From a bacterium (lineage in GTDB: Bacteria; Zhuqueibacterota; Zhuqueibacteria; Residuimicrobiales; Residuimicrobiaceae): a DNA stretch of 64,000 nucleotides. The notes beneath the pieces are model-generated. The model had not been told where the DNA came from. It did no database searches and saw only the letters and a program-made list of their open reading frames with translations. Positions 4,414 to 24,941 of this stretch are shown here, one piece after another; position 1 is the stretch's first letter; every line of letters starts with the position of its first letter. The DNA lies in the NCBI GenBank assembly GCA_029565685.1, contig JAKQNR010000011.1, positions 81,962-145,961 of the forward strand, written 5' to 3'. Made by a program: the position numbers and the translations under genes.

Positions 4414-4776
4414 ATGAATGAGGAAGCTATGCACGAACCAGTGGACCTGCTGAAAGCGATCTCTGATCACGGGAGGTTGCGCATTCTCAAGTTGCTCGAG
4501 ACTCGGAGTCTCTGTGTATGTGAGATCACCGAAATCATCGGATTGGCCACCTCCACCATCTCATCTCACTTGAACCTCTTGAAAAACAGTAGGTTGATTG
4601 AGGATGAAAAGGACGGAAAATGGATCAATTACCGGTTGGCGTCGCCTGCTGATCCTCTGTTCGCCCAGCTCTGGCCTTTGATCTCTAAAAGGCTGGAGTT
4701 GGATCCGGTGGTCGCAGCGGACAAAAAAAAGGCGGCGCAGGTAGATCGTTACAAGATTTGCGGAAATGGAAAGTGA
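4414..4776 (+). CDS. arsR: ArsR/SmtB family metalloregulatory transcriptional repressor
   Basis: It has a winged HTH of ArsR type (LRILKLLETRSLCVCEITEIIGLATSTISSHLNLLKNSRLI) with a CVC metal-binding motif in helix 3. It is the first gene of an ars cluster. Confidence 0.8.
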   Translation: MNEEAMHEPVDLLKAISDHGRLRILKLLETRSLCVCEITEIIGLATSTISSHLNLLKNSRLIEDEKDGKWINYRLASPADPLFAQLWPLISKRLELDPVVAADKKKAAQVDRYKICGNGK

Positions 4777-4784
4777 GGCGACCC

Positions 4785-7223
4785 ATGCTGAACACGGATG
4801 CCTGCGGGAGATCCTTTTGTCCAACTTGTTCCGGATTGCGGCCTTTGCGAATTTTTGTTTTGCTGACCATGGCCCTATTGCCGCTTTCGCTTTTCGCGCA
4901 GGAGTTACGCGGCGGCATCTGTCCGCCTTTTCATCTGTACGATGAACAGGGCGAGATCATTAATCCGGTCCTATCGCCGAATATCTCCCAGCCCTATTCT
5001 CCGCGGCAGACCTGCGGCAAATGTCATGACTATGAAAAGATCACTCAAGGCTATCACTTTCAGCAGGGCAAAGATGAAGTCGCCCCTGCTTTCATGCAGG
5101 AACGATACCGCTGGGTCACCTCGCCCGGTAATTACGGCGGCAACTGGTGTTCGCCCGCTCCCCTTTATCGCAGCCTGGCGCTCAAGAAGAATGAAAAGGC
5201 GCGTCAGATCGACATGACCTCTTTTGAATTCATCACCGCCACCTGCGGCTATTGTCACCCCGGCGGCGGACCAGCGGAGCTGGATCGGGAGGGCAATCGC
5301 TACGATCAGCATATGGCCGATCCTTCCAGCTCAATGACGCCGGGCGGCGACAACGGACTGGACGGCGATTATTACAAAGCTTTCTGGAGTGAAACCGGCG
5401 TGCTCGAAGCGGATTGCATGCTCTGTCATCTGCCGGAATACAACCAAAAAGAACGTCAACATCAAATAGATTTATGGAATTTCCGTTGGGCTGCCACGGC
5501 AGGAGCTCGCTTGGCCAAGGTCGAAGGAAGCATCAAAGATAAAAAGCCGGTGACTCTTGTTTATGATCTTTCTCTATTCGATGCAGAGGGCAGGCTTTCG
5601 GCACATCTCGTACGTGAACCGCGCAACGAAACCTGCTTGACGTGTCATGCCAAGCCGCAGTGGAAAAAGCGCGGCGCCAATTTCACCAGCCGCAGCGATG
5701 TACATATGAAAGCCGGGTTGAAATGTGTGGATTGTCATGCCGCCGGCAGCGCAGCAGCCGATCCGCTTATCCGTGGAAAGGAAGAGCACCAATTCGGCAA
5801 GGGAGACGATCCTTCCGGCCATGTGCGGGATGATCTGGACAACACCATGCGGGATTGCGCTGATTGTCATTTGGATGGGTATCTGAATGCACCACGACCG
5901 AAACACGCGTGGCTGCCGCCTTTGCATCTGAACAAGATCGCCTGTGAAACCTGCCACATCCCGGAGCGCGGATTCAAATCAGCCATGGTGCAGGTCAGCG
6001 ATGCGTATAATCCGGGCCCGAAAATCTCGCCGCCGGCCAAGCATATCTGGACTTTTTATGACGCCAACTTGCAATACTGGAACCATTATGGCGAGCTGGC
6101 ACAATTTAGCGTTGCCGATAAGCCGGTCGTGCCCTACAGGCCGGTTTTGGCGCGTTACAAGGATAAAATTTACCCGGTTAATCGCGTACACAGCGCCTGG
6201 CCCGGCATCGAGGAAGAGGGCAAGCCCGGCTTGAATCAGCCTTTTATGAGAGATGTGTTTGCTATGTGGCAGCGTCACCTGAAAGATCCGCTGCAATTTC
6301 CGCTGTTGGAAAAAATCCGCGATGATAACGGCGACGGCATGCCGGAAGTCAACCGCGATGAAGAGATCGACGCCATGATTGTTTCGCTTCGCGGCTATTT
6401 GCAGCAAACAGGATTCGATCTTTCCGGCAAACGCGTGGTCTGGGTCAATAATGACCTGGTCTATTATTCGGCCGGCGAACACAGGAAGCTCGCCAAAGAG
6501 ACTTTTGAAGCCTCTCCCTATGCTTCGGTATACAAATACTCCCATGACGTTTATCCGGCTCAGGCGGCACTGGGCGTGAATGGCTGCATGGACTGTCATA
6601 GCACGCGCTCCGGCTTTTTTACCGCTCCAGTGGTGCACTATCCTTTCGCAGACGAGGGCAAACCGGTTTATACAGCGCAGTACCGCCTCATGGGGTTGTC
6701 GCCCTGGGCGGTCTATGCCTCTCTCTGGCGAGAAACCTGGATGAAGCCGATTTTTTATCTGGGGATGATTATCCTCTTTATTCTGTTATTGGCCGGCCTG
6801 GGGGATAAACATATTAGAGCCCTGCTGCCTTCAGCTCGCCTGCGCCGGATTATGCTGCCGGGGATCGCCCTGGTCATTGCTTTGGCCATAGGACTTTTTT
6901 ACAGCGCAGCGCCTGAACTGTCCGCTTACATGCTGCCGTCGCGGCTGCAGCTGGACGCCAATCATTTTTATCTGGCAGTCGGCGCCATCCTGATGTCGAT
7001 GCTGGCTCTCCTGGGTTTTCCGGTCGGTGCCGGCAAATTTTTCCGCTTGGCTGAATTCATGCGCTTTATCGCCTGGACCAGCATGGGTTTGTCGGTCGTC
7101 TGCGGTTTGGCAATGCTTTGCGGCAATGGGCGTTGGTGGTACACTTTTTTTGATCTGGGATTGGTGACGATGGTGCTGGCCGCTGCAAAAGGACTGGTCC
7201 TGAAAACCTGGCAGGAAGAGTGA
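4785..7223 (+). CDS. Octaheme c-type cytochrome with signal peptide and C-terminal multi-helix membrane anchor
   Basis: There are eight CXXCH motifs (CGKCH, CGYCH, CMLCH, CLTCH, CVDCH, CADCH, CETCH, CMDCH). A signal-peptide-like segment IFVLLTMALLPLSLFAQE precedes them. The last ~170 aa are strongly hydrophobic, about 4-5 predicted TM helices. The frame runs from TTG 4758, but ATG 4785 is the preferred start, so the overlap with the arsR stop is short. Confidence 0.7.
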   Translation: MLNTDACGRSFCPTCSGLRPLRIFVLLTMALLPLSLFAQELRGGICPPFHLYDEQGEIINPVLSPNISQPYSPRQTCGKCHDYEKITQGYHFQQGKDEVAPAFMQERYRWVTSPGNYGGNWCSPAPLYRSLALKKNEKARQIDMTSFEFITATCGYCHPGGGPAELDREGNRYDQHMADPSSSMTPGGDNGLDGDYYKAFWSETGVLEADCMLCHLPEYNQKERQHQIDLWNFRWAATAGARLAKVEGSIKDKKPVTLVYDLSLFDAEGRLSAHLVREPRNETCLTCHAKPQWKKRGANFTSRSDVHMKAGLKCVDCHAAGSAAADPLIRGKEEHQFGKGDDPSGHVRDDLDNTMRDCADCHLDGYLNAPRPKHAWLPPLHLNKIACETCHIPERGFKSAMVQVSDAYNPGPKISPPAKHIWTFYDANLQYWNHYGELAQFSVADKPVVPYRPVLARYKDKIYPVNRVHSAWPGIEEEGKPGLNQPFMRDVFAMWQRHLKDPLQFPLLEKIRDDNGDGMPEVNRDEEIDAMIVSLRGYLQQTGFDLSGKRVVWVNNDLVYYSAGEHRKLAKETFEASPYASVYKYSHDVYPAQAALGVNGCMDCHSTRSGFFTAPVVHYPFADEGKPVYTAQYRLMGLSPWAVYASLWRETWMKPIFYLGMIILFILLLAGLGDKHIRALLPSARLRRIMLPGIALVIALAIGLFYSAAPELSAYMLPSRLQLDANHFYLAVGAILMSMLALLGFPVGAGKFFRLAEFMRFIAWTSMGLSVVCGLAMLCGNGRWWYTFFDLGLVTMVLAAAKGLVLKTWQEE

Positions 7224-7474: not shown

Positions 7475-8773
7475 ATGAATTGGAATAAAGAACTCAAACC
7501 GTTGTTTTGGATGGTCGGGGCATTCATCTTGCTTTACTATCTGCCCATCGGCACACAAAGATTTGACAATGCCGTCATGGAGGCCTTCCACCTGGTCAAG
7601 TGGTATGCTCGGGAGCATGTCTTGCTGTGTCTGGTGCCAGCTTTTTTCATCGCCGGCGCCATCGGCGTATTTGTCAGCCAGGATTCGGTAATGAGATACC
7701 TCGGGCCGCGCGCCAATAAAGTGCTGGCATACGGCGTCGCTTCGGTATCCGGCACGATTCTGGCGGTGTGCTCCTGCACGGTGTTGCCGCTGTTTTCCGG
7801 TATCTATACCATGGGCGCAGGTTTGGGACCAGCCACGGCCTTCCTCTATTCCGGCCCTGCCATCAACGTACTGGCCATCATTCTCACTGCTCGGATCCTG
7901 GGGCTGGAACTAGGCGTGGCGCGGGCGGTCGGCGCTATCGTCTTTGCGGTCATCATCGGTTTGCTGATGCACTGGATTTTCCGGCATGAAAAAAAGAAAG
8001 AGCACGACGGCCCCGTACAGTTGGATGAATCCAAAGCCGGCCGGCCCTTATGGCAGACGGTGGTTTATTTTTTCCTCATGATCGCCATCCTGGTTTTCGC
8101 CAACTGGGGAAAACCGGAGGAGACGGAAGGCTTCTGGCGCACAGTCTATTCCCTCAAGTGGATCTTGACGGCCTTCAGCGCCTTGGGTCTGGCTGTCGTT
8201 CTGGGATTGTGGTTCAATATCAGCTGGCTTCGTCTTGGTCTGGCTGCGTTGCCGGTGATTCTGCTCGGACTTTTTACCCCGTCCAGCCCGGTCTTGCTCT
8301 TTGCGATCGGTTCCGTCGGCCTGGCCGTTGTCACGGCTGTGGACAAGGGCGAAGCGGGTGATTGGTTTGCCGCTTCCTGGGATTTTGCCAAAAAGATATT
8401 GCCTTTGCTGTTGATGGGCGTGTTCATCGCCGGCATGCTTTTAGGAAGAGTGGGGCATGAAGGAATCGTTCCCTCCGAATGGGTCAACCGGGCCGTCGGC
8501 GGAAACTCCCTCTTTGCCAATTTCTTCGCCTCCATCGCCGGGGCGTTTATGTATTTTGCCACATTGACCGAGGTGCCGATTCTGCAGGGGCTCATCGGCA
8601 GCGGCATGGGCAAAGGACCGGCATTGGCGCTGCTGTTGGCCGGCCCGGCGCTTTCATTGCCGAGTATGTTGGTGTTGCGTTCCGTGATGGGAACTAAAAA
8701 GACGTTTGTTTTCGTGATGCTCGTGGTGATTATGGCGACAATAACCGGCGTGGTTTTTGGCTATTTCTTCTAG
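7475..8773 (+). CDS. arsP: DUF318/YraQ-type permease, ArsP-like (candidate organoarsenical efflux permease)
   Basis: This is a polytopic membrane protein with the conserved CSC motif in a TM helix ([11 protein letters not shown]), as in ArsP/DUF318 permeases (ICSCxxxPL). It lies immediately upstream of arsM and has an AAGGAG RBS. Confidence 0.6.
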
Positions 8774-8789
8774 CGGAGAAAGAAAAAAG

Positions 8790-9596
8790 ATGAATGAAAT
8801 GACAAATGATCAAATTCGCAAGGCTGTGCGACAGCGGTATAGCCTTGCAGCGCAAAAAAGTGAATTCGGATGTGGTTGCGGACCTTCCTGTTGCGGCGGA
8901 GAGGCGCCTGACGAAGGGCATCGGCAGACATCCGCGCGACTGGGATACACCCAGGAAGAACTGGACCAAGTGCCGGCTGGTTCAAACCTGGGCCTTGGTT
9001 GCGGCAATCCACAGGCCATTGCTGCGCTCAAGCCAGGTGAGGTGGTTCTTGATTTAGGCAGCGGCGCCGGTTTTGATTGCTTTCTGGCCGCGCAGCAAGT
9101 GGGTCCTGAAGGATTCGTCATCGGCGTGGACATGACGCCCGAGATGGTGGCCAATGCCCGGGCCAATGCCCAACAGGATGGTTATAAAAATATCTCCTTT
9201 CGCCTGGGCGAGATCGAAGCGCTGCCTGTGGCGAATGAGGCTGTGGATGTGATCATCTCCAACTGTGTGATCAATTTGTCTCCCGACAAAGAGTCGGTCT
9301 TGCGTGAAGCTTTTCGCGTGCTCAAGCCCAATGGCCGACTCGCCATTTCTGATGTGGTGGCTACGGCTGATCTGCCGCAGGAAATTCGCGGCAATCTCGA
9401 TTTATATGCGGCGTGTGCAGCCGGCGCCCTTACTATTTCAGAGTTGGAGAGGCTTCTCAATCGAACCGGTTTTATCGATATAGCGATCACGCCCAAAGAT
9501 GAGAGCCGCGATTTTATTCGGGAATGGGCGCCGGACCGTAATCTGGAGGATTATATTGTTTCGGCGGCCATAACCGCCAGGAAACCACTGCGCTGA
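8790..9596 (+). CDS. arsM: Arsenite S-adenosylmethionine methyltransferase ArsM
   Basis: The SAM-MTase motif I is [13 protein letters not shown]. ArsM-typical cysteine clusters are present: [11 protein letters not shown] near the N-terminus, ISNCVINLS and AACAAG. The start is chosen at ATG 8790, which has a GGAGAAAG RBS. An upstream TTG at 8757 is an alternative. Confidence 0.85.
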
Positions 9597-9638: not shown

Positions 9639-10688
9639 ATGGGCACCGCAAAAAAATTATCCTTTCTGGATCGCTACTTGACGATCTGGATTTTTCTAAC
9701 CATGATCGCCGGCGTCTTGGCCGGCTATTTTTCGCCCTCCATCACCGGTTTTTGGGATCAGTTTAAATCCGGCACCACCAACATCCCCATCGCCGTGGGC
9801 TTGATCCTGATGATGTATCCACCGCTGGCCAAAGTGCGCTATGAGGAATTGGGCAAGGTATTCCGCAATTATAAAGTGCTGGCGCTTTCACTGGTGCAGA
9901 ATTGGGTGGTCGGCCCTGTTCTGATGTTCTTGCTGGCGATCGTTTTTCTTCGCAGCTACCCCGAATACATGGTGGGGCTCATTCTGATCGGACTGGCCCG
10001 CTGCATCGCCATGGTCATCGTCTGGAACGAATTGGCTCAGGGCGATACCGAGTATTGTGCCGGTCTGGTGGCGCTCAACTCGATCTTTCAGGTGTTTTTC
10101 TATTCGATCTATGCCTGGATTTTCATCACCGTGTTGCCGACTCTAGTCGGCCTGAAAGGGATGGAGGTTCACATCACCATCGGGCAGATCGCCAAAAGTG
10201 TGTTCATCTATCTGGGCATTCCATTTCTCGCCGGCCTGTTCACTCGCTTTATTCTCATTCGCATGAAAGATAAAAAATGGTATCATGAGCGGTTCATCCC
10301 CAAAATCAGTCCGTTGACGCTGATAGCCCTGTTGTTCACTATTTTCGTCATGTTCTCGCTCAAGGGCGATTACATCGTCCGGCTGCCGTTGGATGTGCTG
10401 CGCATCGCGGTTCCGCTGATGATCTATTTTATCGTGATGTTTCTTATTTCTTTCTATATGAGTCATCGCGCCGGCGCCGGCTATGGTCAATCGACTACGC
10501 TGTCCTTCACCGCCTCCAGCAATAATTTCGAGCTGGCCATCGCCGTCGCCATTGCGGTGTTCGGCATCAACAGCGGTGAAGCGTTTGCAGCAGTCATTGG
10601 TCCGTTGGTGGAAGTGCCGGTGCTGATCGGATTAGTCAATGTCGCACTGCGAATTAAACAAAAATACTATAAAGGAGATGCCCGATGA
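9639..10688 (+). CDS. acr3: ACR3-family arsenite efflux transporter
   Basis: The N-terminus [25 protein letters not shown] is characteristic of ACR3. The protein has about 10 TM helices and is 349 aa. Confidence 0.85.
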
Positions 10689-10921
10689 TCGTGCAGGTAT
10701 TAGGAATGGGTTGCGCAAAATGCAATACCCTGGAAGCCAAAGTAAAAGAAGTGGCTGAAAAAAACAACATCGAGTTCGTTTTCGAAAAAGTGACCGATTT
10801 TAAAAAAATCATGGACTATAAGGTGATGATGACCCCCGCCCTGGTGGTGGATGGGGTCGTCAAATGTTACGGCCGCATTCCCAAAGAGGACGAGTTGCTC
10901 AAATGGCTTAAAGGAGAATAG
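10685..10921 (+). CDS. Small cytoplasmic thioredoxin-fold protein (redox-active disulfide protein 2-like)
   Basis: The 78-aa protein has a CxxC in MGCAKCNT near the N-terminus. Proteins of this type are common in ars operons. Confidence 0.65.
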
Positions 10922-10922
10922 A

Positions 10923-11339
10923 ATGAAACGAAGCGCCCTCATTGTCATCTTGTTATGCATCCACTCAATTTGGGGCTGCGAAAGCGGCGGTTCCAGTGAT
11001 TCGGTCGCTCAAGGCAAGAAAGATTCCAGTCAGGTCAAGGTAACTTTTGTCGAATTGGGCTCGGTTAACTGTATTCCCTGCAAAGCGATGCAGCCGGTGA
11101 TGAAAGCGATCGAGGACAAGTACGGCGACCAAATCAAGATCGTTTTTTACGATGTCTGGAAACCGGATCAGAAAAAATACGCCCAGCAATACAAAATTCG
11201 CCTCATCCCTACTCAGATATTCCTCGATGCAAAAGGCCGGGAGATCTTTCGCCATGAAGGCTTTTTCCCTGAAGCGGAAATTGATAAATTGCTGCAATCC
11301 CATGGCCTGAAACCCGTTAAAAAGGAAAACAAGACGTGA
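10923..11339 (+). CDS. Exported thioredoxin-family protein (TlpA/ResA-like), probable lipoprotein
   Basis: The start is ATG 10923, preceded by an AAAGGAG RBS. A signal peptide with lipobox-like IWGC is followed by a thioredoxin fold with the CIPC active site. Confidence 0.65.
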   Translation: MKRSALIVILLCIHSIWGCESGGSSDSVAQGKKDSSQVKVTFVELGSVNCIPCKAMQPVMKAIEDKYGDQIKIVFYDVWKPDQKKYAQQYKIRLIPTQIFLDAKGREIFRHEGFFPEAEIDKLLQSHGLKPVKKENKT

Positions 11340-12043
11340 TCGACAGTCTGTTCAGTTATCTCAGCGGGCTCATGGCGTCCAGTTTTTCTCTGGCCTTGTT
11401 GGCGGCTCTGGTATGGGGGGTAATGAGTATTTTACTCAGCCCCTGCCATCTCTCCAGCATCCCGCTGATCATCGGCTATATCACCAGCCGTGAGAGCAGG
11501 AGCGCGCGGCACTCTTTTGCTCTGGCTTTGGTTTTCGCTTTGGGCATCCTTCTCACCATCGCGCTGGTGGGCATTGTCACTGCCTCTTTGGGCCGGTTGA
11601 TCGGCGATGTGGGCATCTGGGGCAATATCCTCGTCGCTGCTATTTTCATCGTCATGGGACTCTATCTGCTGGATGTGATTTCCCTGAATTGGAACAGTCT
11701 GCCGGCATCCTCCAGTAAATCCGGGTATTGGGGCGCCTTTGGATTGGGTTTGATCTTTGGTATCGGACTCGGTCCTTGCACCTTTGCCTATTTAGCCCCT
11801 GTGCTGGGCATTGTCTTCAGCCTGGCGCAGAGCGGCTGGCTCAAGCCCGTTCTGCTTATTCTTGCTTTTGCGATCGGTCATTGTGCGGTCATCGCACTGG
11901 CCGGCGGATTGGGCCAATGGGTGCAAGACTATTTGAATTGGAGTTCACAATCGCGAGCCGCCGGGCTTGTCAAAAAGATCGCGGGCGTATTGGTATTGTT
12001 GGGCGGAGTCTATTTCATATTTACTGCATTTGTGCAAAGATAG
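11336..12043 (+). CDS. ccdA: CcdA/DsbD-family transmembrane thiol-disulfide electron transporter
   Basis: There are six hydrophobic helices. Conserved cysteines sit in TM1 (LSPCHLSSIP) and TM4 (GLGPCTFAY). The GTG start overlaps the previous stop. Confidence 0.7.
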   Translation: MIDSLFSYLSGLMASSFSLALLAALVWGVMSILLSPCHLSSIPLIIGYITSRESRSARHSFALALVFALGILLTIALVGIVTASLGRLIGDVGIWGNILVAAIFIVMGLYLLDVISLNWNSLPASSSKSGYWGAFGLGLIFGIGLGPCTFAYLAPVLGIVFSLAQSGWLKPVLLILAFAIGHCAVIALAGGLGQWVQDYLNWSSQSRAAGLVKKIAGVLVLLGGVYFIFTAFVQR

Positions 12044-15725: not shown

Positions 15726-15726
15726 A

Positions 15727-15763
15727 GTGAAAAGCCGAGGTGAGTGCCTCGGCTTTTCACTTT
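15727..15763 (+). terminator. Rho-independent terminator
   Basis: A perfect 14-bp inverted repeat GTGAAAAGCCGAGG/CCTCGGCTTTTCAC with loop TGAGTG is followed by TTT. It lies directly after the FmdE stop. Confidence 0.6.
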
Positions 15764-16073: not shown

Positions 16074-17276
16074 ATGAAAATTCTCATTCTTTGTACCGGC
16101 AATTCCTGCCGCAGCCAGATGGCAGAGGGCTTGCTGCGGTCGTTTGATCCGGGGCTGGAGGTTTTTTCCGCTGGGACAGAGCCGGCAGCCGTTGTGCATC
16201 CATTGGCGATACAAGTGATGGCGGAGCTGGGCATTGATATCTCCCAGGCAAAGCCCAAACGAGCCGATCAATTTTTGCACGATGATTTTGATTATGTCAT
16301 AACCGTCTGCGATCACGCCAACGAAACCTGTCCGGTATTTCTGGGCCCGGTGCGGCATCGGCTTCATATCGGCTTTGAGGATCCGGCCAAAGTTACAGGC
16401 AGTAACGAGTTCATATTGGACGAGTTCCGCCGCATACGCGATGAAATCCGTGTCAAGTTTGACGACCTTTATCGCCAGCAGATTCGGAAGGAAATGACAA
16501 CGTGCGATAAATCTTTGGGTTTCATCGGCGCCGGCCGTGTGGCTCGAATCCTGCTGGAGGGGTTCAAGCGGGTGAACGGGCCGATGCAAGATATTTTCGT
16601 CAGCGATATCAATCCTAAAGTCATGACCGATCTGCAAAACAAATACCCCTACATCAAAACGACCGATAATCCGGCGGAGGTCGCCCGGCAGGACTATGTG
16701 TTTTTGGCACTGCATCCTCCAGCCATTCCGGCTGGAATGGAGGCAATCAAAAATGGTCTTAAAAAAGAGGCTGTGGTCATCTCGCTGGCGCCCAAAGTCA
16801 CGACTGAACGGTTGACGGCCGGACTGGACGGCTTTAATCGCATCGCCCGCTGGCTTCCTACTGCCGCAACATTTATTGGCAAAGGCTACAATCCTTGTTT
16901 TTATTCCCCCCATCTCTCATCTGCTGAACAGGCATCTCTAACAGCATTATTTTCCAGCGTAGGTGGATGCATAAGGGTCGCGGAAGATAAGATCGAAGCC
17001 TATGCCATGATTATCACCATGGGTCCGACCTATTTCTGGTTTCAGTGGCAACAATTGTTTGAATTGGGTAAAACCTTCGGTTTGTCCGAAGAAGAATTGA
17101 AATCAGGATTGCCGGCCATGCTGAAAGGAGCGATAGAGATATTCTATCATTCCGGGTTGACTCCTGAGCAAGTGAACGATCTCATTCCGGTCCGACCTCT
17201 GGCTGAAGACGAAGCGGCCTTCAAGGCCGCTTATCAAACCAGACTGACCGCCCTGTTTCATAAATTAAAGAAATAG
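16074..17276 (+). CDS. arsC: Fusion of a thioredoxin-coupled arsenate reductase (LMW-PTP family ArsC) with a pyrroline-5-carboxylate-reductase-like NAD(P)-binding domain
   Basis: The N-terminal ~140 aa carry the CX5R P-loop ILILCTGNSCRSQMAEG plus downstream Cys residues, as in Trx-type ArsC. The C-terminal ~260 aa carry the Rossmann motif LGFIGAGRVARILLEGF and align in order with ProC blocks (VVISLAPKVT; NRIARWLPTAATFIGKG; ITMGPTYFWF...). Confidence 0.6.
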   Translation: MKILILCTGNSCRSQMAEGLLRSFDPGLEVFSAGTEPAAVVHPLAIQVMAELGIDISQAKPKRADQFLHDDFDYVITVCDHANETCPVFLGPVRHRLHIGFEDPAKVTGSNEFILDEFRRIRDEIRVKFDDLYRQQIRKEMTTCDKSLGFIGAGRVARILLEGFKRVNGPMQDIFVSDINPKVMTDLQNKYPYIKTTDNPAEVARQDYVFLALHPPAIPAGMEAIKNGLKKEAVVISLAPKVTTERLTAGLDGFNRIARWLPTAATFIGKGYNPCFYSPHLSSAEQASLTALFSSVGGCIRVAEDKIEAYAMIITMGPTYFWFQWQQLFELGKTFGLSEEELKSGLPAMLKGAIEIFYHSGLTPEQVNDLIPVRPLAEDEAAFKAAYQTRLTALFHKLKK

Positions 17277-19094: not shown

Positions 19095-19353
19095 CGAGTC
19101 TGCGGTTCAGAAATGAAGAATTGCTCATCCTACCAAAGGCGGAAATAATATGAAAATTTTCCTAGTGCACAAACCACCGCCTTTCGCGATGGTGCTTGAC
19201 TTGACGCGCCGGTAATTCCTATCGCCGCCAAACGGCGCAGGAATGGCCGAAATCCTTAGGTCCCCCCGCCTGCAGGCCTTTTCCGCCGGTTTCGGGATTA
19301 AATTCGTAGGCACTTATTCCGTATTTACCAGGAACAGTTTTGAAAGGAAATCG

Positions 19354-19692
19354 ATGATTGCCAAAGTAGAGATTAGTGCGGGTGTTTGCGGTTTTAGCAC
19401 AACCGCCAGGGTTGAGAGCGACGATGACCAGTTGGTCGCTTTTCGCATTAAAAGCGATTGCGAAAAAATCAACGCTCTGGCGGCCAGGATCGCTGATTCC
19501 GGGGCTCTCGACGCCTATGCGGAGATTTCCGCACGGGATCAAAGCCGTTTGCTCGCCCTGGCTCAGGAACAATTGTCCGGCTGTTGCGCCGCCTGCGCCG
19601 TACCCATAGGACTGTTCAAAGCCATGCAGGTGGCAGCCGGTCTGGCCTTGCCCAGAGAGGTGGTCATCCGGCTGGAAAAAGAACAGGCGTGA
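19354..19692 (+). CDS. Hypothetical small Cys-rich protein
   Basis: The ATG at 19354 follows AAAGGAAA. The 112-aa product contains CGFS...C...GCCAACAV. No family was recognised. Confidence 0.3.
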   Translation: MIAKVEISAGVCGFSTTARVESDDDQLVAFRIKSDCEKINALAARIADSGALDAYAEISARDQSRLLALAQEQLSGCCAACAVPIGLFKAMQVAAGLALPREVVIRLEKEQA

Positions 19693-19740
19693 GCCTGCTT
19701 TTGCAATATAAAAATCCCATTGAAAAAAGGAGCACGCGCG

Positions 19741-20073
19741 ATGACTTTACTTTATCTGAATTCCGACCAGATGGGCAGCGGCGATCCCGTGCTGGGTAAA
19801 AAACTGCTGAAAATTTTTTTGGAAAAACTGGCAGCCTCCGACGTTCAGGTGGATCTGGTGGGGTGTGTGAATTCGGGGATTTACCTGACCTCTGAGGGCA
19901 GCGAGGTGTTGGCCAGCCTGAAAAAGCTGGAGGAGAAAGGGGCGCGCATCGCCACCTGCGGCACCTGTCTGGATCATCTTCATCTCAGGGAAAAACTGCA
20001 GATCGGCGAGATCGGCGCCATGGACCAGACGGTGCAGGTCATGGCCATGGCGGACAGGATTATCAGGCCCTGA
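19741..20073 (+). CDS. DsrE/DsrF-like family protein
   Basis: The ATG at 19741 has a perfect AAAGGAG RBS. The 110-aa product has VDLVGCVNSG and ATCGTCLDHL, resembling the DsrE/YchN fold (VCGTSLEARG-type motif). Confidence 0.45.
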   Translation: MTLLYLNSDQMGSGDPVLGKKLLKIFLEKLAASDVQVDLVGCVNSGIYLTSEGSEVLASLKKLEEKGARIATCGTCLDHLHLREKLQIGEIGAMDQTVQVMAMADRIIRP

Positions 20074-20157: not shown

Positions 20158-23013
20158 TTATAATTCCAGAGCCATGATAAATTCCGGCTGCCATTTTTTT
20201 TCGCCCGGCAGATAGGCAAAACGCACGCCCAGCGGCAGTTCCACTGGAAGAGATAGCAGGTGCATATAGGCTGTCAGCTCGATGCCGGCGGCGCGGTAAC
20301 GTATTTTCTTTTCATCGGTCCGCGCCCGCGCATCGTCGTAGAAAAGAGCGGCGGTCAGCTTTTTGACATAGATCAGGCCCAATCCGTTCCAGTCCGGAAA
20401 AGCGAGCGGCAGGGCGTAATCGGCAGACCAGCGGTAAAAGAAATCGTGATAGCGATCGCTATATCCGCGGCACATACGGGACTGGTTTTCAAACCGGTAA
20501 TTTTCCGCTTTTTGTTTCTCAGCCGCCAGCTGCCAGCGCCAGCCGTGCAGACGGTGAAAGCCGGGAAAATAGAGATTCAGCCGCACGGCCGCCAGCTGGG
20601 CGCGATAATCGCTGTGAAAGGGAACGTGGCGATAGAGCACGCGGACGGACTGGCCGAAGCGGGGATAGACCTCATTGATCCATTGGCAGGTGCGGGAGAG
20701 CTGAGCGGAATAGGTGACCGGCGCAAACGCTCCGTTGTTGTGTTCATAGAGCTCTGTGAACTCTTTGTCGGAAATCTGCGCATACTCAGCCGATGCACTG
20801 AGCAGCAGATGGGTCTGATAAACCGAGCGCGTCAGATTCAGCGGCAGGCGCAGTCCCAGAGATAGGCCCTTTTCTTTCCAAGAGTAGAGCTGTGGCCGGT
20901 CCTGAGCATTCCTATAGCTGGAAGTGCGGCCGCCAAACCGTGCGCCGAGATCCACGATGGGGTACCATCCGGCATAGCTGAGCAGGGCGGCGCCGGCATG
21001 GGTTCCTTCGTTCTGATTGTGGGCATAACCTAGTGTCCAGCCCATGGTTCCCAAAAGATTTCGCGACACAAGCTGCGCTGTGATGGTCTCATATGAGTCT
21101 GCAGCGATGGGCAATATCCAACTGTGCGGGCGGATCGCATCTTTCAGTGATCGATATGCTTCTATTTTAAAAGTCGTGTCGTGCAGGGTCGTGCAAAAGT
21201 CCCCACCCGCTTCCTGCAGGACCAGAGGTTCATGATAGTCGAACCGCTGGGGCAAGATTTCACTCCATGCCTTCCACCGCGTCGAGTCCAGTTCCATCTC
21301 TGCGACCTGATATCCTTTTAGATCATAGTCGTTGAAATAGAGCGTTCGGCCGTCCCGAGAGACAGAGGGATTGAAGGCGCCGAATTTTCTTGAAGTAACC
21401 TGCCAGATCTTTTTGCTCCGGCGATGGATTGCATAGATGTTGTCGATGCCGGAATAGTCCCAGTTGAACAGCACATAGTCCTTGTAAAAAGTCGGCAGAC
21501 CGGTGTTCTCTTCTCCGCTGGCTATAAGCTCCTGCCACTGGCCGGTTTCCAAATCGATGAGATCGAGGCTGCGGCCGGTTTGTGTCAGCACGTTCAGCGC
21601 AATCCACCGATTGTCCGCGGACCAGGCCGGAGTCATAAGAAAGGCGTTCTGTGGATGGGACCATCGCCGAATCTCTGCGCCTGTCTCGGCATCCAGGATC
21701 ACCAAATGACACCGGTTCGCCGCTGTGTATTCCACCGCTGCGATGCGCCGGCCGTCTGTGGACAGCGCCGGCGCCATATATTTGCTCTTGTCCGTCAGCC
21801 GCTTTGTCCGGCCGCTGGCGAGGTCATACACTTTAATGGAGGAATAGTCCAAGTACCCCCAGCGCGGATGGGGCCTTTGTTCGGTCCAGACAATCTTGTC
21901 CGCTGCCACGGAAGGGGGATATAGAAAGGGGCTGGCCGGCAAGTGTAAAATTTTTTCATCCCCGTCGAGCGACAGCTGCGTGAGACTGAAGCGATCCGCC
22001 AGACCGTATTTGAGCACCAGGATAGAGCTGTCGGACAGGGGTTTGGGAAACAGATAGTGAGTGAGAAAGCGATCGGAATGATTGATCTGTTTGGCCGCGG
22101 TCAATTCGACATTGGCCAGCTGTTCCTGCCATAACGTTTTCACCTCTTCCATCGTCGCGTTGTAAAGGCCTGTTGCGGTGAGCCCGGTTTTACGTCGCAG
22201 GGACCAGGGGAAACGGTAGGGCAGGAGGGAGAGCGCCATGGTGCTAGCGATGACGTCCGACCAGATGACGGCGCCTTTTTCCCGGCGCAGGCGAGAGACC
22301 AGCAAATAACCGAATGCATACGGATCCGCGGACCAGTCCGAATATGAACCGAAGGTCATCTTGTAATAGGAATGGCGCTTGCCGGAGAGCAGCATGGCGC
22401 GGATGGGCATGGTGAATTCCGGCATGCGGCCGCGTCCTCCACGAGTCAGGGCGGTTTCCATGACCACTGCGTCGCCCTCGAACAGCCAGGCCGGCAGGTT
22501 CATCATCGCGCCCACGGCGTGGCCGAAATCGCCAAAGGAGAAATAGAGCCATTTAGTCATGCCGCGCAACGCCCGGTCAAACTGCACCACATGGCGGTAT
22601 TCGTGGATCGCCAAAAGATGATACCAGGGAACGCAGCCGATCAAGCCCACCTGCGGAGGCGTGTTGAACCATTCGCTCTGCCGCGGCGCCAAGCCCACGA
22701 ATCCGTTGGCTTCGGTGTTCTGGTTATGCAACACCAGCGAGATTTTGCGCGGCCGTGTTTGCAGCGAACGGCCGTCCGCTTCATACAGATGCTCCAGCAG
22801 GTTGGCGACCTGCTGCGCGTCCCTGCTGATCTCCTCCGGGAACACGATTCTGAAATGGGCTGCGTCGATCTGTTTCCAGGCCAATCCCGGCGGATTTTGC
22901 ATGGATTCCAGGCTGAGGCTGATCTGCCCCGAACAGCTCCAGGCGCTGATCAGCAGCGCGACGAGAATGCGAAGGAGGTGATTCCCCATAGTCCGTCCTA
23001 GTAATAATACCAT
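20158..23013 (-). CDS. Secreted multidomain protein with an HExxH zinc-metallopeptidase-like motif and a TolB-type PD40 beta-propeller region
   Basis: A signal peptide MGNHLLRILVALLISAWSCSGQ is present. The motif AIHEYRHVVQFD occurs near residue 140. PD40-like repeats follow (LSTDGRRIAAVEY, WSADNRWIALNV, PSVSRDGRTLYF). The Tyr/Trp-rich C-terminal third is not assigned to a fold. Confidence 0.4.
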   Translation of the reverse strand: MVLLLGRTMGNHLLRILVALLISAWSCSGQISLSLESMQNPPGLAWKQIDAAHFRIVFPEEISRDAQQVANLLEHLYEADGRSLQTRPRKISLVLHNQNTEANGFVGLAPRQSEWFNTPPQVGLIGCVPWYHLLAIHEYRHVVQFDRALRGMTKWLYFSFGDFGHAVGAMMNLPAWLFEGDAVVMETALTRGGRGRMPEFTMPIRAMLLSGKRHSYYKMTFGSYSDWSADPYAFGYLLVSRLRREKGAVIWSDVIASTMALSLLPYRFPWSLRRKTGLTATGLYNATMEEVKTLWQEQLANVELTAAKQINHSDRFLTHYLFPKPLSDSSILVLKYGLADRFSLTQLSLDGDEKILHLPASPFLYPPSVAADKIVWTEQRPHPRWGYLDYSSIKVYDLASGRTKRLTDKSKYMAPALSTDGRRIAAVEYTAANRCHLVILDAETGAEIRRWSHPQNAFLMTPAWSADNRWIALNVLTQTGRSLDLIDLETGQWQELIASGEENTGLPTFYKDYVLFNWDYSGIDNIYAIHRRSKKIWQVTSRKFGAFNPSVSRDGRTLYFNDYDLKGYQVAEMELDSTRWKAWSEILPQRFDYHEPLVLQEAGGDFCTTLHDTTFKIEAYRSLKDAIRPHSWILPIAADSYETITAQLVSRNLLGTMGWTLGYAHNQNEGTHAGAALLSYAGWYPIVDLGARFGGRTSSYRNAQDRPQLYSWKEKGLSLGLRLPLNLTRSVYQTHLLLSASAEYAQISDKEFTELYEHNNGAFAPVTYSAQLSRTCQWINEVYPRFGQSVRVLYRHVPFHSDYRAQLAAVRLNLYFPGFHRLHGWRWQLAAEKQKAENYRFENQSRMCRGYSDRYHDFFYRWSADYALPLAFPDWNGLGLIYVKKLTAALFYDDARARTDEKKIRYRAAGIELTAYMHLLSLPVELPLGVRFAYLPGEKKWQPEFIMALEL

Positions 23014-24791
23014 ATGGATTGGTAATCCGCTCTTTTTTCCCCCCGTTTTTCCAGCTCTTGCAGATAATTCAGGATGGGCACATCCACATCGATGTAGGTT
23101 TGCACCAGGCTGAGATTTTTTTCCCAGGGATGAAACTCGTACACGCGGCTGCCGTTGGGCAGGACGGTCAACAGGGTGTGGTGTTGGCTGGCGCGCACAT
23201 AGTTTTTCCCCAGGCCGGGCACATTGTAGACCGGCTCATCGGTGCGCACCAGGCCGGGCAGCATGCGCGCTTCTTCTTTGACCTCCTGCTGCAGCCGCGC
23301 CATGGGCACGCGGTAATCGCGCGTCTCCTGTTTGCCTTTGGTGTTGAAGGTGTAATAAGAGTCCACGCCGATCAGGCGCAACAGCCGGCGCAGCGCCGCC
23401 AGCTCGAAGCGGCGGCTGTTCTCGATGGTGAACACCGCCTGATTGTAAACCGATAGGCCGGCGCGACGGAATTTTTGCACCGCTTCCTGTGATTCCGGCG
23501 TGATCTCGTACGAGTGCTCAAAGTGGGTGATCACTGCGATCTCACGGCGGCCGGGCTCATAAAAGGCGGCGATGCCTTTTACCAGTTCATCGGTGATCCG
23601 CTGCGGCAGCGCCACCGGTGTTCGAGAACCGATGCGGATGCGTTCTATATGGCGGATAGCGGCCACCTGTTCCAGTAGATCGAGGAAACGGCGGTCCGGC
23701 AGAACCAGCGGATCGCCGCCGGTGATCAGGACCTCCACGATGCCGGGATTGCGCTTGAGCCAGCGGATCGCCTCTTTGATTTTATCCGTTCCGGCGAGCG
23801 CGTGCGGCATCAGCGCATCCTTAATTTCCCAGTTGCGCTGGCAATACACGCAGATTTGGCTGCAGGTATTGTACGGTTTAAAGATGGCGATATGGGGATA
23901 GCGCCGGGTGATGAGATCGACGGGGGAGGTGTCCCTTTCCAGCATAAAATCCAGGCGGTCGTTCTCATCGGATCTGCGTTTGCTCATCTCTTCGACGTAA
24001 TGGGGCGGAGGAATGACCTGGCTGCGGACCGCGTGGTCCAGCCGCCGATGCGATGCACGATCCATTAGCGAGGCGTAATAGGGCGTGATGGCAAAGGGCA
24101 ATCTGTGCCGCTTGGCCTGATCGATAGCGTGTCGCTCGGATGCACTCAACTGGATAAACCGCGCCAGCGTCTCGCTGTCCCGGATCAGATGACGCAGGTG
24201 CCAGCGATAATCCTGCCAATCCGATTCCTCTGCATTCCAGGCGGCGAGCAGGCGGCGGCGGTTGGCCTTGCGACGGGCGATGATCTCTGGTTCCAGACCG
24301 TGCCGGATTCGCTTCATCTTTTGCAGAGACTTGCGCGCCATATCTTCCAAGTGGATGGACCGCGCCTGGGCCGCTTGGCGGTTTTTCAGGTGCGCGTAAG
24401 CGGGCAGGGTGACATCCTTATAGATGCCGCTTCGGCCGATCATGCCGAGCAAAATATGACGTAGGTCTTCGATAAACGCCTCATTTAAATCCGGCGCCAG
24501 TTGATCATATTTTTTATTGGCCAGCAGCCACAGCTGCCGCAAACAGCTGTACCGGGTCAGCGTTTCGCTGCGCATGGAGATGATTTCGCGAAAGGCGTAC
24601 AGCGATTCGATTTGCAGACTCCACTCCAGGCCGCGACGGCGCTCGCCGGCGTGATGCAGGATTCTGGACAGCTCTTCAATATAGGCTAGTATAAAACTTC
24701 GGGCAACCCGAGGGGATGGCGCTTCGGTCAACAGCTGAAAGATGACAGGATTGGCGTTTTTCAGGTGTGCATGCAAGGTTTGATGATTCAT
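22998..24791 (-). CDS. KamA-family (lysine 2,3-aminomutase-like) radical SAM protein, long form
   Basis: The radical-SAM cluster CSQICVYC (CxxxCxxC) lies in RRYPHIAIFKPYNTC..., matching KamA ([22 protein letters not shown]). Further blocks are collinear with KamA: SDWQDYRWHLRHL, AITPYYASLMD, GSRTPVALPQRIT and a GKNY Lys. The start is set at the ATG preceded by AAGGAGG (24791). This leaves a ~190-aa N-terminal extension not found in canonical KamA. Confidence 0.6.
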   Translation of the reverse strand: MNHQTLHAHLKNANPVIFQLLTEAPSPRVARSFILAYIEELSRILHHAGERRRGLEWSLQIESLYAFREIISMRSETLTRYSCLRQLWLLANKKYDQLAPDLNEAFIEDLRHILLGMIGRSGIYKDVTLPAYAHLKNRQAAQARSIHLEDMARKSLQKMKRIRHGLEPEIIARRKANRRRLLAAWNAEESDWQDYRWHLRHLIRDSETLARFIQLSASERHAIDQAKRHRLPFAITPYYASLMDRASHRRLDHAVRSQVIPPPHYVEEMSKRRSDENDRLDFMLERDTSPVDLITRRYPHIAIFKPYNTCSQICVYCQRNWEIKDALMPHALAGTDKIKEAIRWLKRNPGIVEVLITGGDPLVLPDRRFLDLLEQVAAIRHIERIRIGSRTPVALPQRITDELVKGIAAFYEPGRREIAVITHFEHSYEITPESQEAVQKFRRAGLSVYNQAVFTIENSRRFELAALRRLLRLIGVDSYYTFNTKGKQETRDYRVPMARLQQEVKEEARMLPGLVRTDEPVYNVPGLGKNYVRASQHHTLLTVLPNGSRVYEFHPWEKNLSLVQTYIDVDVPILNYLQELEKRGEKRADYQSIWYYY

Positions 24792-24941
24792 GCTCGCCTC
24801 CTTTCCAGGGTGAAAGGTCAACCGCACATCGGTACGATTCTCCTCTATTAACATGCCGGTTTGTTGGGAATTGAACTACAATAAGTAAAAGACGGCAAAA
24901 ATGCAAGGAATTTGCGGACGATCGAGTTGGGAATAAAAAAG

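Follow-up and report, generated by a model that had tools for sequence, protein, structure and literature searches.

An arsenate reductase fused to a pyrroline-5-carboxylate reductase-like NAD(P)-binding domain, and the ars-associated family to which that domain belongs

Few detoxification systems have been studied as closely as arsenic resistance operons, and additional ars genes continue to be named on a regular basis. The locus described here raises the question of what a domain resembling pyrroline-5-carboxylate (P5C) reductase does when it is attached to an arsenate reductase. The window, i.e., the whole stretch of 64,000 nucleotides that was analyzed, comes from a bacterium of the Residuimicrobiaceae and contains, at 16074..17276, an uninterrupted open reading frame (ORF) of 400 amino acids plus stop, which starts with ATG and has no internal stops (all features given here lie on the + strand). 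A sequence-only reading had proposed that this single ORF joins an ArsC domain to a P5C reductase (P5CR)-like NAD(P)-binding domain; Pfam and PDB sequence matches agree with that view, and the two motifs that it quoted are indeed present, CTGNSCRS at residues 7 to 14 and GFIGAGR at residues 149 to 155. Both domains are detected, homologues keep the fusion, and ArsC::P5CRL (P5CRL being the family of the C-terminal half) is a real, conserved gene that combines a thiol-type arsenate reductase with an NAD(P)-binding enzyme half.

The N-terminal half, residues 1 to 135 (16074..16478), is an ArsC domain of the LMWP type, which is the thioredoxin-coupled type. It has the LMW-PTPase/ArsC fold. The Pfam LMWPc profile matches residues 3 to 126 (E 3.4e-18; 66.7 bits versus a threshold of 23.2), and the best PDB sequence matches of residues 2 to 130 are the arsenate reductases 8p5n, 1jl3, and pI258 ArsC. 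Its score for the curated NCBIfam equivalog TIGR02691 is below the cutoff (116.9 versus 174.3 bits). The P-loop CTGNSCRS (16092..16115), with Cys7, Arg13, and Ser14, is conserved in all fused homologues and aligns to the P-loops of pI258 ArsC, B. subtilis ArsC (1jl3), and 8p5n. The redox loop CDHANETC (16308..16331) harbors Cys79 and Cys86, which are spaced by six residues, correspond to Cys82 and Cys89 of pI258, and are present in every fused homologue; in the structure model this loop is the only segment of low pLDDT (83 to 85), as expected of a mobile loop. Moreover, the FEDP motif (16374..16385) contains Asp103, the equivalent of the general acid Asp105 of pI258, and aligns with the FDDP of GFDDPA in B. 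subtilis ArsC and with FEDP in 8p5n, the D-P pair being conserved. Given these conserved residues and the established mechanism of the pI258 and B. subtilis enzymes, the N-terminal domain would be expected to reduce As(V) by a disulfide cascade, in which Cys7 would attack arsenate, Cys79 would release arsenite via a Cys7-Cys79 disulfide, and Cys86 would then carry the disulfide to the surface.

The CX5R(S) P-loop, the Cys triad, and the Asp are shared with the thioredoxin-coupled ArsCs of pI258, B. subtilis, and Deinococcus indicus (ArsC2, 8p5n). The position in the operon is shared as well, as fused homologues fill the arsC slot in operons ordered arsR-fusion-acr3. Unlike those enzymes, the fusion has a 254-residue C-terminal NAD(P)-binding domain on a helical linker. 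ArsC domains are often fused to other ars-pathway proteins, for example in ArsR-ArsC and Acr3-ArsC, and we also observed an LMWPc::ArsM fusion at locus L082 and a tandem LMWPc-LMWPc protein (P0033). The partners in these fusions likewise belong to the ars pathway, but none of them is a pyridine-nucleotide-binding domain.

Two adjacent genes might have been joined by a sequencing or assembly error, and residues 140 to 150 had been singled out as the place to look for a stop or a frameshift. No stop was found there, only Met141 (16494-16496), which is part of the linker QIRKEMTTCDK (16479..16511), a segment that is variable among fusions. The fusion is kept in at least 14 independent metagenome or genome sequences, which form about 14 protein clusters with identities of 44 to 100%, and it was read continuously at the DNA level on three independent contigs (L001, L003, and L022). 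The fused ORFs are split between two separate clades, and their linkers differ in length yet always remain in frame. Some observations would suit an artifact: the ArsC and P5CRL genes are unfused neighbors, 10 nt apart, at locus L007; locus L008 has a stop codon inside the linker, with the frame unchanged; and gene callers frequently break the ORF up or cut it short (the protein entry P0026 versus the L022 ORF). However, with fused ORFs conserved across independent contigs and in both clades, a frameshift or assembly artifact was rejected, and we give it practically no chance of being the explanation.

As for the origin of the fusion, both fused clades adjoin lineages in which P5CRL is directly preceded by an LMWPc gene, and adjacent ars-operon genes would have merged when the intervening stop codon was lost. 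Met141 is preceded by GGAAGGAA and, lining up with the initiating Met of the stand-alone homologues, reads as a putative relic of an ancestral, separate P5CRL gene. In the structure model, a single continuous helix spans residues 111 to 142 and so runs into the linker; the model has a pTM of 0.68, and its interdomain geometry is uncertain.

The C-terminal domain, residues 147 to 400 (16512..17273), has the P5CR fold, including the helical dimerization domain. Pfam F420_oxidored (PF03807) matches residues 148 to 239 (E 2.6e-11), and the best PDB sequence matches of residues 146 to 371 are P5C reductases, PYCR1 among them, with the PYCR1 alignment ending at 371. The dinucleotide-binding motif GFIGAGR (16518..16538) of the Rossmann part, which follows the GxGxxG/A pattern within GFIGAGRVA, is common to this domain and to ProC and PYCR1; its residues G149, F150, G152, G154, and R155 do not vary among 47 sequences. 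At the end of beta-2 lies VSDIN (16599..16613) with the nearly invariant Asp178, which, on general knowledge of Rossmann folds, may point to a preference for NADH.

Since the top sequence and fold matches are P5C reductases, and since JGI annotates the homologues as such, the domain could be taken for a genuine P5C reductase that supplies proline as a protectant under arsenic stress. At locus L007, proB and proA even lie just upstream. Nevertheless, the loop that binds P5C is gone: in an alignment with a canonical P5CR unit, (T)SPGGTT has undergone a 6-residue deletion and replacement, so that DLIPVRPL (17178..17201) stands in its place, and PV(K/R)P replaces the loop in all P5CRL members aligned. 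Other blocks of ProC and PYCR1 have also changed, AVKP to LHPP, SVAAG to SLAPK, and GSGPAF to AMGPTY. The domain scores 99.3 bits for TIGR00112 versus a cutoff of 196.75, matching profile positions 1 to 224 of 263, and Pfam P5CR_dimer (PF14748) is matched weakly at residues 304 to 369 (15.3 versus a cutoff of 25), ending at profile position 66 of 105. A large score gap separates P5CRL from the general P5C reductases, as seen in the 223 clusters retrieved at E<=1e-30 versus 9547 at E<=1e-10. Moreover, the genomic context of P5CRL is arsenic resistance, whereas that of ProC is proline synthesis; neither proA nor proB was found at any of 80 P5CRL genome loci. With the substrate loop missing, the scores subthreshold, and proline genes absent nearby, an identity as true ProC was rejected, and proline synthesis is a very unlikely role. 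The proB-proA pair upstream at L007 is a one-off.

P5CRL occurs in no fewer than 508 species genomes, all of them metagenome-assembled genomes (MAGs), and its carriers include Syntrophaceae, Acidobacteriota, Verrucomicrobia, Bacteroidales, Ignavibacteria, KSB1, and some methanogens. Genes of the ars type lie near P5CRL at 73 of the 80 genome loci, and it almost always lies among genes of a set that encodes ArsR, ArsE-like small thioredoxins, a permease of the ArsP type, Trx/DsbD, Acr3, and ArsC. Neighbors were tallied at the 37 loci where P5CRL is flanked by 5 kb or more on each side: Thioredoxin_3 (Trx3) occurred at 30, ArsP at 29, ArsR at 23, Trx at 20, DsbD at 19, Acr3 at 17, and LMWPc at 13. 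Trx3 was also the commonest immediate neighbor (15 upstream and 12 downstream), followed by Trx and LMWPc. Since LMWPc lies within 5 kb at just 13 of these 37 complete loci, P5CRL function cannot depend strictly on ArsC. Overall, P5CRL is a discrete, uncharacterized ars-cluster family present in hundreds of anaerobic lineages, and the fusion therefore joins two neighboring ars genes. A Thioredoxin_3::P5CRL fusion (P0128) also came up; when searched for specifically, it proved to occur only once, on a contig of 2.2 kb, and it was downgraded as support for that reason.

In the window, the fusion gene lies in a cluster of about 16 kb headed by an ArsR gene (4414-4776). The ArsR gene is followed by genes for a multihaem cytochrome (4758-7223), an ArsP_1 permease (7475-8773), ArsM (8757-9596), and Acr3 (9639-10688), all assigned by Pfam; ArsM and Acr3 also score above the cutoffs of the NCBIfam arsenite methyltransferase (363.6 bits) and Acr3 (458.8 bits) models. 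Next come an ArsE-like small thioredoxin of the Thioredoxin_3 type with the motif GCAKC (10685..10921; 100.9 bits for TIGR00412, the MTH895/ArsE family, versus a cutoff of 62), a thioredoxin (10851-11339), and a DsbD/CcdA-type membrane protein (11336-12043), the latter two recognized by Pfam, and together these form an arsEFG-like trio. Closer to the fusion gene, a perfect hairpin with a 15-bp stem (15726..15761) lies directly 3' of the upstream FmdE gene and, as a predicted terminator, probably ends the FmdE transcription unit, so that the fusion gene would start a transcription unit of its own. In a promoter and terminator scan around the fusion gene, hits were no more numerous than in shuffled sequence and this hairpin alone stood out; no convincing ArsR operator was found upstream of the gene.

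The C-terminal domain of the fusion probably connects NAD(P)H with the thiol relay of the ars system, and we assign a probability of about 0.45 to the full reading, i.e., that the fusion is an arsenic-detoxification protein whose C-terminal domain couples NAD(P)H oxidation to this relay. The domain would be an NAD(P)H-binding oxidoreductase, possibly NADH preferring, that has lost the proline/P5C-binding loop. Oxidation of NAD(P)H at this domain would regenerate the ArsE-like small thioredoxin and, by way of this small thioredoxin, ArsC, the coupling being either direct or via a small redox mediator; the small thioredoxin encoded at 10685..10921 is a candidate redox partner. The fusion would thus keep the electron source together with the arsenate-reducing sink. 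That the attached domain is concerned with electron supply had been suggested by the sequence-only reading, and it is in line with the stand-alone P5CRL genes, which most often adjoin genes for ArsE-like thioredoxins and ArsC. The further suggestion of a self-contained wiring found no support in the form in which it was put. The complete Cys7/Cys79/Cys86 triad is kept, and the disulfide that it finally leaves at the surface normally requires thioredoxin, the cluster in the window encodes thioredoxin-like proteins at 10685-11339, and the C-terminal domain has neither a flavin-binding domain, as judged by a Pfam search, nor a family-specific redox cysteine, its sole conserved cysteine, the nearly invariant Cys299, being present in human PYCR1 as well.

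Every NAD(P)H-dependent thioredoxin or disulfide reductase known to us relies on a flavin together with redox cysteines. As the C-terminal domain has neither the flavin site nor the redox cysteine pair of these enzymes, a direct step from NAD(P)H to a disulfide would be unprecedented. A stricter form of the proposal, in which P5CRL would be a reductase that uses NAD(P)H without a flavin and powers the reduction of arsenate by thiol reduction or by hydride delivery, appears improbable to us. P5CRL might then act directly on the ArsE-like small thioredoxin or on the ArsC disulfide, reducing one or the other. Alternatively, arsenate that has been activated as a thio-ester of a cysteine might receive a hydride from P5CRL, in what would be the chemical reverse of the action of phosphite dehydrogenase on phosphite. 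If true, a flavin-free recycling of the thiol relay by the P5CRL domain would be new redox biochemistry, and either mode of action would open a new enzymatic route from pyridine nucleotides to arsenic detoxification in anaerobes.

Some ars operons carry electron-supply genes for a Trx-type ArsC, namely those for ArsT (thioredoxin reductase) and ArsX (thioredoxin), as in arsRBOCT of Streptomyces pHZ227. The concept, an ars operon with its own electron supply, is the same as the one proposed here. However, ArsT belongs to the pyridine-nucleotide disulfide oxidoreductase family, is a flavoprotein, and contains a redox CxxC, whereas the C-terminal domain of the fusion has a P5CR fold and lacks both the flavin site and the redox cysteine pair. 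ArsH, an NADPH-dependent FMN reductase of aerobic ars operons with a flavodoxin-like fold, bound FMN, and O2-dependent chemistry, resembles P5CRL in that it is an oxidoreductase that uses NAD(P)H and has its gene in ars operons; the two differ in fold and are not known to share homology. The arsRBOCT paper appears as reference 24 in PMC9144182.

P5CRL genes often lie inside or beside a trio of Thioredoxin_3, thioredoxin, and DsbD_TM genes, and this trio, found in the window and at most related loci, resembles the ArsEFG system of Shewanella putrefaciens 200, the names ArsE and, weakly, ArsG being given by NCBIfam. The DsbD_TM protein of the window differs from ArsG proper in that it falls far below the ArsG-family cutoff (55 versus 200 bits). 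We know of no P5CR-like gene described in ArsEFG, a system reportedly presented by Chen, Zhang and Rosen in 2019 in Environ Sci Technol 53:6182.

The C-terminal domain could instead be an ordinary dehydrogenase or reductase that matters in arsenic metabolism without recycling ArsC or thioredoxins, with an imine, carbonyl, or pentavalent (organo)arsenical as its substrate, in which case the fusion to ArsC would reflect just coexpression within a single pathway. For example, a pentavalent organoarsenical or thio-arsenical might be reduced and the product exported by the ArsP-type permease. The remodeled substrate loop would suit such an enzyme, as would a set of invariant polar residues (H214, K241, R259, Y320, Q324, D369, K/R374, and E380), the lack of a redox cysteine or flavin site, and a P5CRL::methyltransferase fusion that also exists. 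Moreover, P5CRL co-occurs most tightly with the ArsP permease and Trx3, not with ArsC. Nevertheless, the neighboring genes point to no candidate substrate, such a step is not known from the described ars pathways, and the repeated fusion to ArsC, in two clades, together with the tight coupling to small thioredoxins, indicates a protein partner. We consider a small-molecule substrate possible, though on the unlikely side; if the domain does act on an arsenical, it would represent a new step in the anaerobic arsenic cycle.

The domain might also be noncatalytic. It might bind NAD(P)(H) merely as a redox-state sensor, or serve as a dimerizing scaffold, regulating or organizing ArsC and the small thioredoxins, given that the C-terminal domain of P5CR is a dimerization module whose fold is retained, that the canonical substrate loop is lost, and that the linker is predicted to be a continuous, rigid helix. 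However, the invariance of many presumed active-site residues across phyla and the persistence of a stand-alone P5CRL gene in hundreds of genomes fit an enzyme better, and a noncatalytic role seems quite unlikely. The ArsC fusion offers a direct, testable link of pyridine nucleotides to thiol-based arsenate reduction.

The sequence-only reading had not recognized this ArsC architecture as a described one, and a full-text literature search agrees with it, finding no description of either the P5CRL family or its fusion to ArsC. The fusion appears to be a previously undescribed arsenic-resistance gene, and P5CRL suggests that an entire family of ars-cluster components in uncultured anaerobes has gone unnoticed. 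In databases, the fusion homologues carry only the label "pyrroline-5-carboxylate reductase" or the label "NAD(P)-binding domain-containing protein," and P5CRL genes should not be counted as proC. Many of the database entries begin at the wrong codon and, as a result, appear without the catalytic P-loop.

The fusion gene (16074..17276, + strand) is a single ORF of 400 codons with an ATG start and no internal stop. By Pfam, residues 3-126 of its product match LMWPc (E 3.4e-18) and residues 148-239 match F420_oxidored (E 2.6e-11), with a weak, partial P5CR_dimer match at residues 304-369. Against solved structures, the hits for residues 2-130 are arsenate reductases, namely 8p5n (D. indicus ArsC2, 97 bits), B. 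subtilis 1jl3 and pI258 ArsC of S. aureus. For residues 146-371 they are P5C reductases, human PYCR1 among them. An AlphaFold2 model built from 47 sequences has a mean pLDDT of 91.1 and a pTM of 0.68. In NCBIfam, arsC_pI258 (116.9 bits) and proC (99.3 bits) come out on top, and neither reaches its curated equivalog cut-off. The open frame and these Pfam, NCBIfam and structure matches bear out the sequence-only reading that one ORF joins ArsC to a P5CR-like NAD(P)-binding domain, and both motifs it quoted are present, the P-loop CTGNSCRS at residues 7-14 and the dinucleotide-binding motif GFIGAGR at residues 149-155. The N-domain thus resembles the pI258 and B. subtilis ArsC in residues and fold but misses the curated equivalog score; it shows the full set of sequence and fold features that mark the thioredoxin-coupled class, and the C-domain retains an intact nucleotide-binding motif. 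Taken jointly, we hold the architecture and the ars role of the fusion to be about 95% probable.

The ArsC fusion is real and conserved. A database search turned up this architecture in about 17 clusters, at 44-100% identity, from JGI, ENA, NCBI and Logan assemblies. When 14 of the fused proteins are aligned, the P-loop, Arg13, Cys79, Cys86 and the D-P motif of the ArsC domain are conserved, and the linker differs in length and sequence with the frame always kept. Many homologues are annotated as proteins of 380-385 aa starting with 'MAEG'. Since the DNA 5' of this start codes for KILILCTGNSCRSQ, these entries are start-codon miscalls, and the miscalled starts drop the catalytic P-loop from public entries. 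Fusion ORFs with often-wrong public gene calls lie at 9932-11143 in locus L001, 9950-11152 in L003 and 205-1428 in L022; the last, from a KSB1 genome, encodes an uninterrupted 407-aa fusion of which the NCBI annotation covers only the last 265 residues.

A neighbour-joining tree built on C-domains puts the fusions into two separate clades, each adjoining lineages with an LMWPc gene immediately upstream of a stand-alone gene of the P5CR-like family (P5CRL). In the KSB1 locus L007, the ArsC and P5CRL genes are separate, with a gap of 10 nt. The closest genome relative among those listed, L008 (9767-10765, from a Cytophagia-labelled MAG), has an in-frame stop codon in the linker and a C-domain 70% identical to that of the window protein; its ArsC part lacks the N-terminal half, retaining only the C-terminal 70 residues. 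This locus represents either a fusion in decay or a rearrangement. Moreover, Met141 of the window protein aligns to the start methionine of the stand-alone proteins. Together, these observations show that, on at least two occasions, adjacent genes were fused when the stop codon between them was lost. An assembly error, for which a stop or frameshift between two joined genes had been proposed as the sign, was rejected, given the two-clade tree, the L007 and L008 arrangements and the Met141 alignment; the ORF is continuous and the same architecture recurs in the approximately 17 clusters.

Most matches to the fusion query are stand-alone proteins of about 259 aa, with about 50% identity to the C-domain. 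When one genome per species was scanned, at least 508 genomes proved to hold a relative. The best 80 of these loci, every one from a MAG, represent delta-proteobacterial lineages, Acidobacteriota, Anaerolineae, Ignavibacteria, Bacteroidales, Verrucomicrobia, Omnitrophota, Planctomycetota, Gemmatimonadota and two lineages of methanogens; their ORFs were annotated by phmmer with seeds drawn from the window and from the loci looked at first. Ars genes were nearby in 73 of these best 80 loci, and proA or proB was a neighbour in none of them. Within 5 kb, counting only the 37 of the 80 that extend 5 kb or more to each side, we found Trx3 (Thioredoxin_3) in 30, ArsP in 29, ArsR in 23, Trx in 20, DsbD in 19, Acr3 in 17 and LMWPc in 13. 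The commonest immediate upstream neighbour of P5CRL was Trx3 (15), and the commonest downstream were Trx3 (12), Trx (10) and LMWPc (7). In the three contexts inspected first, the orders are arsR-ArsP-Trx3-CDF-Trx3-P5CRL-LMWPc-Trx3-TauE in Syntrophaceae, arsR-ArsP-Trx3-Trx-DsbD-P5CRL-acr3 in Acidobacteriota and arsR-LMWPc-P5CRL-acr3-Trx3-Trx-DsbD-ArsP in KSB1. The fused homologues take the usual arsC place (arsR, fusion, acr3, Thioredoxin_3, thioredoxin, DsbD_TM, ArsP). Against 1.84 billion representatives, a profile search yielded 223 clusters at E<=1e-30 and 9547 at E<=1e-10, which marks P5CRL as a discrete family inside the P5CR superfamily. Even unfused, P5CRL is an ars gene; its genomic linkage to ArsC extends across phyla, and the two modules were fused at least twice.

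The C-domain shares the P5CR fold with ProC but lacks the substrate loop, the score and the context that define it. In alignment with a canonical P5CR unit, the loop TSPGGTT is replaced in P5CRL by PV(K/R)P, six residues shorter, and AVKP, SVAAG and GSGPAF become LHPP, SLAPK and AMGPTY; HMM matches of the C-domain end ahead of the loop position. ProC was rejected on substrate loop, family score and genomic context, and we are confident that the domain is something else. The (nearly) invariant P5CRL residues include G149, G152, G154, R155, D178, H214, P215, S237, P240, R259, N273, P274, E304, E308, Y320, W322, Q324, D369, P375 and E380. Asp178 sits at the end of beta-2, which, by general Rossmann-fold rules, suggests a preference for NADH. 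Cys299 is the sole conserved cysteine; because PYCR1 has it too ('GFCTEV'), P5CRL lacks a family-specific redox cysteine. Pfam found no flavin-binding domain in the C-domain.

As(V) would be reduced by ArsC through a Cys7, Cys79, Cys86 cascade ending as a surface disulfide, for which the ars-encoded small thioredoxins would be the natural reductants. In several clusters, one small thioredoxin directly follows the ArsC gene and another directly precedes the P5CRL gene. P5CRL may tie NAD(P)H to this relay, a role that we put forward tentatively, at slightly under even odds. The proposal is weakest in its chemistry: we know of no NAD(P)H:disulfide reductase that is both flavin-free and cysteine-free, so a mediator may carry the coupling, or the substrate of the enzyme may instead be a small-molecule arsenical. 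The latter is the main rival, and we consider it less likely; NAD(P)H-driven arsenate reduction without flavin is more doubtful still.

The nearest concept to P5CRL feeding a thiol relay is an ars operon with its own reductant supply, as in ArsT plus ArsX; ArsT, however, is a flavoprotein, and the fusion C-domain has no flavin-binding domain. To our knowledge, ArsEFG has no P5CR-like component. In the window, a Thioredoxin_3, thioredoxin and DsbD_TM trio (10685-12043, +) opens with a member of the NCBIfam 'MTH895/ArsE family', whereas its DsbD_TM protein has only a sub-threshold ArsG-family match (55 bits, where the cut-off is 200). The paper describing ArsE and ArsG is the one on ArsEFG, reference 12 of PMC9144182. 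In a literature search that covered few subscription journals, no description of an ArsC::P5CRL fusion or a P5CR-like ars gene was found, in keeping with the initial remark that this ArsC architecture was not recognized. The fusion's partner domain reveals a widespread, apparently undescribed ars-cluster family.

All genes from 4414 to about 20073 lie on the + strand: ArsR, a multihaem cytochrome, ArsP_1 permease, ArsM, Acr3, ArsE-like Thioredoxin_3 (GCAKC), thioredoxin, DsbD/CcdA-type membrane protein, DGC-domain protein, CDF transporter, FmdE, TauE, FmdE, the fusion gene, a small membrane protein, an Alginate_exp-type porin, DUF6951 and a YedF-like protein. These approximately 18 genes behind ArsR form a composite metal(loid) island of unusual size. 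The cytochrome (4758-7223) overlaps the end of arsR at its start, and two FmdE plus zinc-finger paralogues flank the TauE exporter. Directly after the stop codon of the second FmdE, a perfect inverted repeat (15726-15761; 15-nt arms, 6-nt loop) is probably a terminator between the upstream operon and the fusion gene, which therefore probably starts its own transcript. The trio recurs in most related loci, often with P5CRL inside or beside it. DUF6951 (19243-19692, +) also closes the ars cluster of L001 (15969-16334) and may thus be another ars-associated family; it is followed by the YedF-like sulfurtransferase-type protein (19720-20073, +; TIGR03527, 115 bits against a cut-off of 110). Directly downstream of the island (20158-24854, -) lie genes for a 951-aa PD40-repeat protein and a 618-aa radical-SAM protein, the latter with a weak, sub-threshold HAD-hydrolase match.

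Syntrophaceae loci (L004, 6081-9784, and the similar L010-L012) carry up to three Thioredoxin_3 paralogues per cluster, after the ArsP permease, before the P5CR-like gene and after the ArsC gene, which hints at a dedicated small thioredoxin for each partner. The profile search also returned a singleton Thioredoxin_3::P5CRL fusion and one P5CRL::methyltransferase fusion. Among homologous proteins, P0033 (305 aa) is a tandem LMWPc-LMWPc, P0174 (438 aa) joins a P5CR-like domain to a SAM methyltransferase and P0206 (474 aa) has a 245-residue N-terminal region before its P5CR-like domain. Another ArsC fusion occurs in a Verrucomicrobiota MAG (L082, 4148-6325), where a 725-aa ORF combines a 280-residue N-terminal region, LMWP ArsC and an ArsM methyltransferase.
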